Source of the DNA: Verrucomicrobiales bacterium
Lineage (GTDB): Bacteria > Verrucomicrobiota > Verrucomicrobiia > Limisphaerales > UBA1100
Length of the DNA: 64,000 nucleotides
Direction of reading: 5' to 3'
NCBI GenBank assembly: GCA_038139415.1
Contig: JAYOSV010000007.1
Location: 2,198-66,197 of the forward strand
Below are positions 28,339 through 28,950 of the stretch, piece by piece (positions within the stretch are counted from its first letter, which is position 1; each line of letters starts with the position of its first letter). Under the pieces are notes generated by a model, which was given only the letters and a program-made list of their open reading frames with translations, was not told the origin of the DNA and made no database searches. The position numbers were made by a program, and so were the translations under genes.

Positions 28339-28797
28339 TCACTCTATCCTATCGGCACGCCTTCGGCTCGTCTATTATAAAGCCATCAATATATTATAGT
28401 CTGCAATAACAGTATCTTTGCCAAGGTTGGTGGTTTTACGTGCTTCTGTATCTCAGAGAACGAATATTTTGGGCATGGGGATAACCCGTGAATTGCCCGT
28501 GTATACGAAATAATAACTGCAACTTTGCGCGCGACCTTTTTGTGGTAGTTTCAATCCGTTGAGCGGATCTTCGGAATCGCTCGGTCAGCCAACTGACCAC
28601 GGGGATGCGACACCTCCAGAGGAATCTTCGGATGCCAAAGGAAATGTCACCCAGCCCTCCTCCGGGAGAGCTGATTCTCTCCGGCGATGTTCTCTCGGGA
28701 ACATCGCCACGGACAACTTCGTCGGAAGGAGTCCACGAGGTTCACGCCTTCGGGCGGGGATTTCGGTGCGAGAGGCAGAACCAAGTCCACGGCAGGC

Positions 28798-28898
28798 TCC
28801 TTTCGGGGAGACTGCTACTGGGCGGTCGGAAGGCAAGTGCCCTACCAAGGGCATTGACCTTCGAGCAAAAGCTCTCTCGGGAGCGGACGCGAAAAGGA
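28798..28898 (+). promoter_or_regulatory. glycine-riboswitch-like three-way junction inside the glyQS leader (hypothesis)
   Basis: Proposed fold:
- P1: 28798-28805 (UCCUUUCG) with 28890-28898 (CGAAAAGGA), 8 bp and one bulged A
- J1/2: GGGAGA
- P2: CUGCU-acug-GGCGG
- P3a: GAAGG / CCUUC
- P3b: UGCCC-uaccaa-GGGCA
- then GAGCAAAA-[inserted hairpin GCUCucucggGAGC]-GGAC

From memory, the glycine aptamer consensus blocks are GGAGAG, CCGAAGG.GCAA and CUCAGGCAAAAGGAC. Confidence 0.3.
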
Positions 28899-28904
28899 TT
28901 GGTA

Positions 28905-28950
28905 GCCGCCCGGCGGTTGAGCTTCGGTTCAATCCAAGGGCGGCTTTTTT
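28905..28950 (+). terminator. intrinsic terminator closing the structured RNA, 48 nt before the glyQS ATG
   Basis: GCCGCCC (28905-11) pairs with GGGCGGC (28938-44). The loop contains a nested hairpin TTGAGCttcgGTTCAA (28917-32). It is followed by TTTTTT (28945-50) and then gtgttttg. Confidence 0.65.

Follow-up and report, generated by a model that had tools for sequence, protein, structure and literature searches.

A conserved structured RNA upstream of glyQS, probably a stand-alone gene of a new small RNA family in uncultured marine Verrucomicrobiota

Comparative genomics reportedly led Weinberg and co-workers in 2010 to orphan structured small RNA genes that are specific to particular bacterial lineages, among them Bacteroidales-1, Chlorobi-1 and Acido-Lenti-1. 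Only a small number of bacterial non-coding RNAs measure 250-400 nt and have many conserved helices, and several of them have proved to be ribozymes or subunits of cellular machines. Here we analysed an element of about 393 nt located at positions 28558-28950 (plus strand) of a 64-kb stretch of DNA, which is referred to as the window throughout. Like Bacteroidales-1, Chlorobi-1 and Acido-Lenti-1, it has the features of a stand-alone gene with its own promoter, intrinsic terminator and covarying helices, occurs in one bacterial lineage, is linked to no class of genes and has no assigned function. We consider it quite probable that the element is a small RNA gene in its own right and represents a new family in uncultured marine Verrucomicrobiota. 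The unit is conserved, structured, encoded on the plus strand and non-coding, carries its own promoter-like and terminator elements and is independent of the downstream glyQS gene; that it is transcribed as an RNA gene, and with which ends and in which abundance, we infer from its sequence. The RNA family is new but of a familiar general kind, and it has no entry in Rfam 15 or in the literature searched.

The locus and its predicted structure

The gap harbouring the element (28339-28998) extends from the start of a 69-aa minus-strand ORF (28338) to the glyQS ATG (28999). The first-pass annotation of this DNA had described the gap as devoid of a credible ORF and had placed a dense, unclassified hairpin structure at 28558-28950. 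On re-reading, these coordinates were correct, and the only ORFs in the gap overlap each other, translate to low-complexity strings and were judged to be spurious. The homologues described below differ by scattered single-base gaps and in length (238-397 nt), and hence no reading frame is kept among them. The element is unique within the window, in which no second copy was found.

Folding of the plus strand between 28540 and 28955 yielded -195.6 kcal/mol compared to -159.3 ± 6.8 kcal/mol in dinucleotide shuffles (z = -5.4), in line with the density of hairpins noted earlier. Since the minus strand of the same interval folds about as well (z = -5.8), the folding energy alone cannot set the strand. 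The natural variants L081, L084 and L089-L091 keep their stems by G-U pairs, which would be A-C on the minus strand and are thus valid on the plus strand only, and most stem substitutions among near-identical strains are C-to-U changes that likewise give G-U on the plus strand only. The RNA strand is therefore the plus strand, as the first-pass annotation had called it.

The predicted RNA starts at 28558 and ends with the U-tract at 28950. Its 5' part consists of H2 (28561-69/28574-82), which is capped by a UUCG loop and in which two pairs covary (C-G to G-C and G-C to A-U), and the invariant H3 (28583-88/28593-98) with the loop CCAA, which reads YCAR in the family. These are followed by H4 (Ha, 28609-28648), an irregular, UUCG-capped hairpin that has a counterpart of different sequence at the same position in all short relatives. 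An insertion domain of the long variants (28653-28779) comprises H5 (28653-72), H6 (28683-708), H7 (28711-34) and H8 (28736-65) and closes with a purine-rich unpaired stretch. H6, a stem that had been pointed out before, measures 10-11 bp, and near-identical strains carry three versions of it, each of them fully paired; the UUCG or UNCG caps ascribed to several stems are present as well. Downstream of the insertion lies H10 (Hb, 28780-28826), a three-segment stem with a UUCG cap, in which three pairs are changed on both sides and 97.4% of the alignment cells are paired. H11 (28829-28862) is nearly invariant in sequence and is built from an outer GAAGG/CCUUC stem, an inner AGUGCCCU/AGGGCAUU stem and the loop ACCA (RCCA in the family). 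H12 (28871-28884; GCUCU-CUCG-GGAGC) contains two covarying pairs and is followed by the CGAAAAGGAUUGGUA segment (28890-28904), which is predicted to be single-stranded and, starting with GGAUUGGUAGCCG, shows no variation among 22 distinct 3' domains.

The RNA ends in a two-tier intrinsic terminator (28904-28950), in which the outer stem (28904-11/28938-45) is separated by a 3x3 internal loop from an inner hairpin with a UUCG loop (28915-22/28927-34). This structure folds with -27.9 kcal/mol and runs into U6 at 28945-50, 48 nt ahead of the glyQS ATG, in agreement with the terminator assigned to this end in the first-pass annotation. A simple terminator scan with a loop rule of 3-8 nt did not flag it, probably because the two-tier hairpin breaks this rule. 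The inner hairpin is 100% paired among the homologues, six of its eight pairs vary and one is changed on both sides; at the level of the family, the terminator and the CGAAAAGGAUUGGUA segment are invariant in sequence. A K-turn in the internal loop was considered and rejected, as the flanking pair covaries as Watson-Crick.

The repeated words that had been listed for the element are all present, and 8-mers (p about 0.0005) and 9-mers (p about 0.01) recur more often than in mononucleotide shuffles; the CUUCGG hairpin motif, which the element contains several times, probably contributes to this excess. The duplicated structural modules deduced from these words are specific to the window lineage and do not extend to the family as a whole. 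The word TTCAATCC does occur at both ends of the element as reported, but its 5' copy lies in the promoter, outside the RNA, and is not conserved, its position reading TTCTTCTGC in relatives.

Homologous loci, covariation and promoter

Rfam 15 gave no match to the element when the whole window was searched at the gathering score, and under permissive filters (E<=10) the region 28300-29100 returned only chance matches to CRISPR-repeat, histone and lncRNA models. The same search on eight homologous loci and one short relative returned nothing relevant, ARAGORN predicted neither a tRNA nor a tmRNA in the window, and the family was not found in a literature search on its core words and on Verrucomicrobia RNA motifs. 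The description of the element as unclassified thus stands.

Homologues were identified by protein-database searches with translations of the spurious ORFs, followed by a DNA scan of metagenomes. The former approach worked because gene callers sometimes call such ORFs, and it uncovered close variants (P0121-P0123) as well as four distant 'proteins' (P0126-P0129), which have three blocks in common and a much shorter middle. P0124 (L088) was at first taken for a distant homologue and turned out to be merely an error-ridden, low-coverage copy. Gene callers have, in other words, already deposited false proteins over the RNA (P0121-P0129). Scanning metagenomes with a degenerate DNA pattern of the best-conserved block yielded 33 marine contigs, all of which are homologues. 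Several ENA/Logan copies were recovered as well, and a further divergent member, L125, came from a contig look-up. Viral contigs contained neither the exact 17-18-mers nor the family pattern, and the 47 matches to a 15-mer in these contigs were chance matches, none of them homologous.

The homologues fall into three size classes of about 239 nt (L092, L095, L099, L102 and L125, the latter of about 238-241 nt), 247-250 nt (15 complete and 6 partial loci) and 393-397 nt (the window group and the divergent pair L105/L113). Each contig carries one copy. L108 keeps just the final 86 nt, which follow an unrelated gene. The core of the family comprises H2, H3, Ha, Hb, H11 with its RCCA loop, the tetraloop hairpin H12, the invariant CGAAAAGGAUUGGUA segment and the terminator. 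Of the seven loops on core helices, five are plain UNCG or GNRA tetraloops, and only those of H3 (YCAR) and H11 (RCCA) differ. Both Ha and Hb have counterparts in the short types in which the hairpins are kept and the sequences are unrelated, with closing helices such as UUCAGA/UCUGGA, GAGA/UCUC and UGAAGGC/GCCUUCA, and the position of H12 is occupied by GCCC-GCAA-GGGC or GUUC-GCAA-GAAC. H5-H8 are missing from the 238-250 nt relatives. Since the middle of the short forms is made up of Ha and Hb only, H5-H8 represent a lineage-specific insertion, which in the window lineage measures about 130-150 nt.

The relationship between the size classes is also apparent from an HMM built solely from the 238-250 nt relatives, which matches the window at 28556-28600 (E = 1.6e-8) and 28800-28950 (E = 2e-31). 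The first match covers the family H2/H3 signature at 28558-28598, GUUGAGCGG followed by GGUCAG-YCAR-CUGACC, and the second covers the 3' signature of RCCA-loop H11, tetraloop H12, CGAAAAGGAUUGGUA and two-tier terminator at 28800-28950.

The proposed helices are largely paired in all alignments in which pairs were counted, and controls with slid partners were paired in 22-51% of the cells. For the long forms (n = 11), 96.1% of the cells are paired versus 34-51% with slid partners, and eight pairs are changed on both sides compared to 2.7 ± 1.3 in shuffles (1 of 500 as high), although these counts are not independent and the shuffle statistics overstate independence, since all sequences stem from a narrow group of related organisms and many of the events were inherited from common ancestors. 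When the window group is compared to L105/L113, compensatory changes are found in H6, H7 and H8. In the 3' domain (n = 22), 96.6% of the cells are paired and covariation is seen in H12 and in the inner terminator hairpin; with L125 included (n = 17), pairing amounts to 97.9% and H11 shows a compensatory C-G to U-A change in L125. The 5' domain (n = 24) is paired to 93.1% versus 22-43% with slid partners and contributes the two covarying pairs of H2. The conserved 3' core hardly varies in sequence.

Several further pairings were examined, and some of them were discarded. Two long-range helices of the single-sequence fold were rejected, namely P1 (28551-57/28896-902), the 5' strand of which belongs to the promoter and is not conserved, and P5 (28661-72/28870-81), the 3' strand of which forms the conserved local hairpin H12. 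A 5'-3' pairing of H2 with 28879-903 suggested by RNAalifold is broken in L105 and absent in the short types. The candidate helix Px (UUCGA/UCGAA) is paired in 88% and shows one correlated indel, but it shares positions with H11, and the L098 type breaks it. UUGGU is 100% compatible with RCCAA of the H11 loop, without informative covariation, and the CGAAAAGGAUUGGUA segment might pair with the H11 loop in this way or, alternatively, offer a binding site to a partner.

Upstream of the RNA, a conserved block at 28481-28551 became evident when the window was aligned with 23 other distinct upstream regions. Over about 75 nt, these 24 sequences follow the pattern ATAACC-GTGAAAA...ATACGAAATAATAACT...TT.G...TGnTAnnTT, with invariant columns TG, TA..T and TT.G in addition to a conserved AT-rich tract. 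In the window, ATAACC-GTGAA begins at 28481, the AT-rich, UP-like tract ATACGAAATAATAACT lies at 28503-28518, a -35-like TTGCGC at 28525-28530 and the extended -10 element TGg TAGTTT at 28543-28551. We therefore regard the block as a putative promoter, with an extended -10 element preceded by a weak -35 and, further upstream, by an AT-rich UP-like tract; a simple sigma-70 scan found no consensus site in it. G28558 is the predicted start because it lies about 7 nt past the extended -10 element, which agrees with the 5' end set in the first-pass annotation. L090 and L091 have a different gene on the left, yet they are homologous to the window from about 28435 onward.

The sequences downstream of the RNA can be sorted into ten or more classes that are unrelated to each other. 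At least five of these have a convergent gene next to the RNA, and the co-directional genes encode unrelated proteins; GlyRS, a beta-helix protein, a Macro-domain protein, a sialate esterase, a NAGPA-type glycosidase and proteins without a family match are found among the neighbours. A tRNA-Ser(GGA) gene is situated directly upstream in five loci, and neither integrases nor transposases were found among the inspected neighbours. Since these contexts are unrelated and often convergent, a cis-regulatory role across the family is counted out.

Possible functions and competing explanations

We propose that the RNA would be transcribed at a high level and would act in trans rather than on the adjacent gene. 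The conserved 5' and 3' modules would form the functional core, and the YCAR and RCCA loops together with the invariant A-rich/UUGGUA strand beside the terminator would provide a recognition surface for a target RNA or a protein that binds it, or would pair with each other in an internal loop-strand pseudoknot. A scaffolding role would fall to the UUCG-capped hairpins, the array of which grows and shrinks from lineage to lineage. The RNA appears to be a trans-acting structural or regulatory RNA, and a scaffold or decoy in the style of 6S, Y or CsrB RNA has a modest edge over other modes of action because of the size of the RNA, its invariant terminator sequence and the lack of an obvious seed. 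A CsrA sponge was discarded, as the GGA motifs lie outside loops and are not conserved. It is conceivable, albeit unlikely, that the RNAs of this family are one half of a ribonucleoprotein or decoy system that is common to the clade of marine Verrucomicrobiota, has gone unrecognised and ranks with 6S, Y or CsrB-type RNAs. The invariant surface of the RNA would then bind a conserved cellular partner. This surface would consist of the two CCA-type loops, the UUGGUA strand, which could pair with an RCCA end, and the two-tier terminator hairpin with its fixed sequence, and a tRNA 3' end or a tRNA-handling enzyme is a possible partner.

A base-pairing regulatory sRNA of the Hfq or chaperone type is another tentative reading of the same elements to which we attach a low probability, and it would be a refinement of the stand-alone RNA gene proposed here. 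In such an sRNA, the A-rich CGAAAAGGAUU tract, the terminator and the U-tail would form a chaperone module and the conserved loop or strand would act as the seed. The invariant, ARN-like A-rich tract is indeed placed immediately 5' of the conserved terminator with its U6-7 tail, and the RNA seems to have its own promoter. However, with 240-400 nt and at least seven helices it is far bigger and more structured than typical seed-type sRNAs, and complements of the invariant strand in the 64-kb window were at chance level, none standing out above it.

Far less probable is a very divergent housekeeping RNA (RNase P RNA, tmRNA, 6S or SRP RNA) missed by the Rfam models. The length of about 393 nt reached by the long form, the strong, stable-RNA-like promoter, the single copy per contig and the tRNA-Ser adjoining the RNA in five loci are compatible with it, as are short word resemblances: by eye, AAGUCCACGG presumably recalls the RNase P P4 region and GGAAGG..AGCAGG..CCAAGG what we take to be SRP helix 8. 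These regions, AAGUCCACGG included, are lacking in the 238-nt members, though, and the conserved core spans only about 180 nt. In the window element and the short relative, no covariance-model match was obtained at E<=10 and permissive filters for RNase P RNA (RF00010/RF00011), 6S RNA (RF00013) or SRP RNA; tmRNA (RF00023) had no Rfam match, and ARAGORN made no tRNA-like or tmRNA call in the window. Inspection of the element revealed no 5'-3' closing stem, tag reading frame, CCA end or P4 partner strand of the ACAGAA..GGCUUA type, and its conserved architecture is a row of local hairpins and not a rod like that of 6S RNA, in which the two termini pair and a bubble lies in the centre. This agrees with the first-pass annotation, which had found no fit to any of the four RNAs.

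The first-pass annotation had left two options, an independent non-coding RNA and a cis-acting leader of glyQS, and it is the former that prevails. A T-box-like, riboswitch or attenuator leader, in which GGAUUGG captures the inner hairpin's 3' strand, opens the terminator and lets transcription enter glyQS, is suggested by the head-to-tail arrangement of RNA and glyQS in the window and 10 near-identical loci and by UGGUA beside the terminator, which presumably recalls the T-box UGGN motif. All 17 of the sequences compared can moreover form the alternative helix, the window version of which is fairly strong (-20.2 versus -27.9 kcal/mol for the terminator). In the short forms, however, it pairs only via wobbles and reaches just -8.8 versus -22.2 kcal/mol, a cost of 13 kcal/mol relative to the terminator. 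Because of this dependence on wobbles and its energetic weakness in the short forms, the 'antiterminator' is not a conserved switch, and the mutually exclusive GAGC/GCTC/GAGC and GGATTG pairings proposed as switches earlier are restricted to the window lineage and not conserved as stable alternatives.

The T-box model (RF00230) matched neither the window element nor the short relative at the gathering score or at E<=10, the glycine riboswitch model (RF00504) did not match the window element at either threshold, and the scan as a whole, including RF00010/11 and RF00023, left the element without a match. Next to glyQS itself, outside the RNA, a promoter-like block (28959-28989) carries TTGACT at 28959-64 followed by N17 GATACA or N19 TACACT (28982-89). 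The corresponding TTGACT-N17-GATACACT-CGCCGCC stands immediately 5' of glyQS in L082, L083, L085, L086 and L087, all of which lack the RNA. Since the window copy of this block lies downstream of the RNA terminator, a promoter-like element of its own serves glyQS, separate from the RNA unit.

The leader reading is further contradicted by GlyRS relatives gathered from 80 genomes and the protein database. Among the glyQS upstream regions of the 80 genomes and seven close metagenome relatives, the RNA was absent except where GlyRS is 98-99% identical: L081 and L084 have the same gap and an element 98-99% identical to that of the window, whereas L001, L082, L083, L085, L086 and L087 (GlyRS 77-90% identical) have gaps of 34-160 nt without a trace of it. 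The idea of a conserved leader was therefore dropped. The gene upstream of glyQS in L086, which encodes 407 aa, was considered as a synteny anchor and rejected, being no orthologue (24% identity), and hence the boundaries of an insertion are not definable. Across the family, only window-like copies precede glyQS, and the others precede unrelated or convergent genes, a distribution at odds with a T-box leader. Taken together, the comparative sequence data argue strongly against the RNA being a glyQS leader, which we regard as very doubtful, even though some read-through may contribute to glyQS expression in the window lineage given the head-to-tail arrangement. An independent RNA gene, by comparison, is in keeping with its own promoter and terminator, the lack of an Rfam match, the unrelated contexts and the covarying helices.

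A mobile or recombination-prone element or its marker, such as a MITE-like insertion or an integration site, would account for the presence upstream of glyQS in one lineage only, and for the different flanks on either side in close relatives, the mosaic loci L110 and L120, the 86-nt remnant in L108 and TTCAATCC at either end of the window copy, but we judge it highly improbable given the single copy per contig with no other in the 64-kb window, the absence of terminal inverted repeats, the lack of conservation of the TTCAATCC repeat in relatives, the absence of integrase or transposase neighbours and of viral-contig copies, and the conserved promoter and covarying helices, which indicate a functional gene and with which varied flanks agree through low synteny and homologous recombination at a conserved gene.

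Significance and relation to known RNAs

The RNA family comes from abundant yet uncultured ocean bacteria and bears the marks of a heavily used gene: its promoter is long and conserved, its core is invariant and each contig has a single copy. For RNA biologists it is of moderate to high interest, within the limits set by the narrow phylogenetic range seen to date and by helices that are mostly simple. With the family and the structure model defined, metatranscriptomes and cultured relatives become searchable for it. The case also illustrates how a chance location can make an RNA gene look like a regulatory leader.

The resemblance to a T-box leader (RF00230) is instructive in this respect. The window RNA precedes an aminoacyl-tRNA synthetase gene, ends in a terminator, carries UGGU beside the 5' strand of this terminator and has an alternative pairing that competes with it. 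Unlike a T-box leader, it has neither a covariance-model match nor a Stem I with a specifier codon. The synthetase gene is preceded by a promoter of its own, most members of the family lie elsewhere than ahead of synthetase genes, and in most of them the alternative helix is weak. In size, about 393 nt with 12 helices, the window RNA approaches OLE, GOLLD, ROOL, raiA and HEARO, and such a size is rare among bacterial non-coding RNAs. It differs from these in the missing Rfam match, a conserved core of merely about 180 nt, extra helices that are simple tetraloop hairpins without evident conserved tertiary motifs, and the lack of an association with phage or mobile-element genes.

With 6S RNA, CsrB/RsmZ and Y RNA, the new RNA probably shares a high abundance, an action in trans and a strong promoter of its own, and a small conserved recognition core is likewise set amid variable helices. 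It lacks the rod and central bubble of 6S RNA, the repeated GGA loops of CsrB-type RNAs, having plain UNCG or GNRA loops on most core helices, and the closing stem of Y RNA, and Rfam returned no match to any of these types. The closest likeness is to Bacteroidales-1, Chlorobi-1 and Acido-Lenti-1, from which the new family is set apart by the lack of a sequence or structure match in Rfam 15, by its unusually long conserved promoter block and sequence-invariant terminator, and by a variable hairpin array of 65-240 nt that gives rise to the three size classes.

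Mosaic and partial copies of the RNA gene

Two homologous loci are composed of parts that resemble different other members of the family. In L110, the upstream flank and the 5′ half of the RNA match the L098 type, and its 3′ half matches the L097 type; in L120, an L092-type upstream flank with a tRNA-Ser is joined to an RNA and a downstream flank of the L097 type. Judged from the sequences of these two mosaics, recombination seems to have occurred within or adjoining the RNA gene (28558–28950, plus strand). At L108 (930–1015), the RNA gene is represented only by its final 86 nt, which run from the loop of the tetraloop hairpin H12 (28871–28884) to the U-tract and are preceded by unrelated coding sequence. 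Truncation of a copy, a rearrangement that left this piece as a scar, or borrowing of the terminator could each account for it. We also observed that the word TTCAATCC is present both in the promoter discriminator and in the terminator hairpin, and that both copies (window 28554 and 28932) share one A-to-G change in the homologous loci L090 and L091. This parallel change may reflect coincidence or gene conversion.

Genes flanking the RNA

In the window, a 69-aa ORF (28129–28338, minus strand) is located upstream of the RNA. Comparison with L081, a locus encoding a 98–99% identical glycyl-tRNA synthetase (GlyRS), identifies it at the sequence level as the N-terminal remnant of a gene for a 407-aa PQQ/BamB-like beta-propeller lipoprotein, which is intact in L081 (1101–2324). 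About 1046 bp of this gene are missing in the window and in L119, and two haplotypes can therefore be distinguished, with and without the lipoprotein gene. In five loci (L092, L095, L099, L102 and L120), the strand that encodes the RNA also carries a tRNA-Ser(GGA) gene about 120 nt upstream of it, at 1807–1896 in L092. Only the RNA promoter block separates the two genes. Downstream, a LarB-like AIR carboxylase gene (30658–31416) follows glyQS. L097 (661–1947) and L119 (from 11429) each contain, within about 5 kb of the RNA, a gene that we regard as LarC-like on the basis of its N-terminus only. Because this putative LarC-like gene is near the RNA in both the short-type L097 and the long-type L119, yet differently arranged, their hosts are suggested to be related and the region to have been rearranged.

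Database and sequencing artefacts

Several "hypothetical proteins" of 77–153 aa in public collections (P0121–P0129) are annotation artefacts, namely spurious ORFs called over the RNA gene, and served as a homology handle for the RNA family. L088, which at the protein level appeared to be a distant homologue, was rejected: it is a low-coverage contig from an L081-like genome, altered by sequencing errors, in which many single-base deletions split glyQS into fragments.

The glyQS start and GlyRS relationships

The promoter-like block TTGACT..GATACACT ahead of glyQS (28999–30639) is conserved (28959–29022 region), and this region contains no Shine-Dalgarno sequence. The first ATG is replaced by GTG in L083, and several GlyRS database entries begin at Met8 (ATG at 29020), which may be the true start, with a short leader. 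Among the compared loci L001–L080, the nearest GlyRS belongs to one Verrucomicrobiales MAG (77% identity), followed by Planctomycetota enzymes (57–63%), and those of other Verrucomicrobiae and Opitutae are far more distant (46–49%). An ancient transfer could explain this similarity pattern, as could an enzyme type particular to the lineage.
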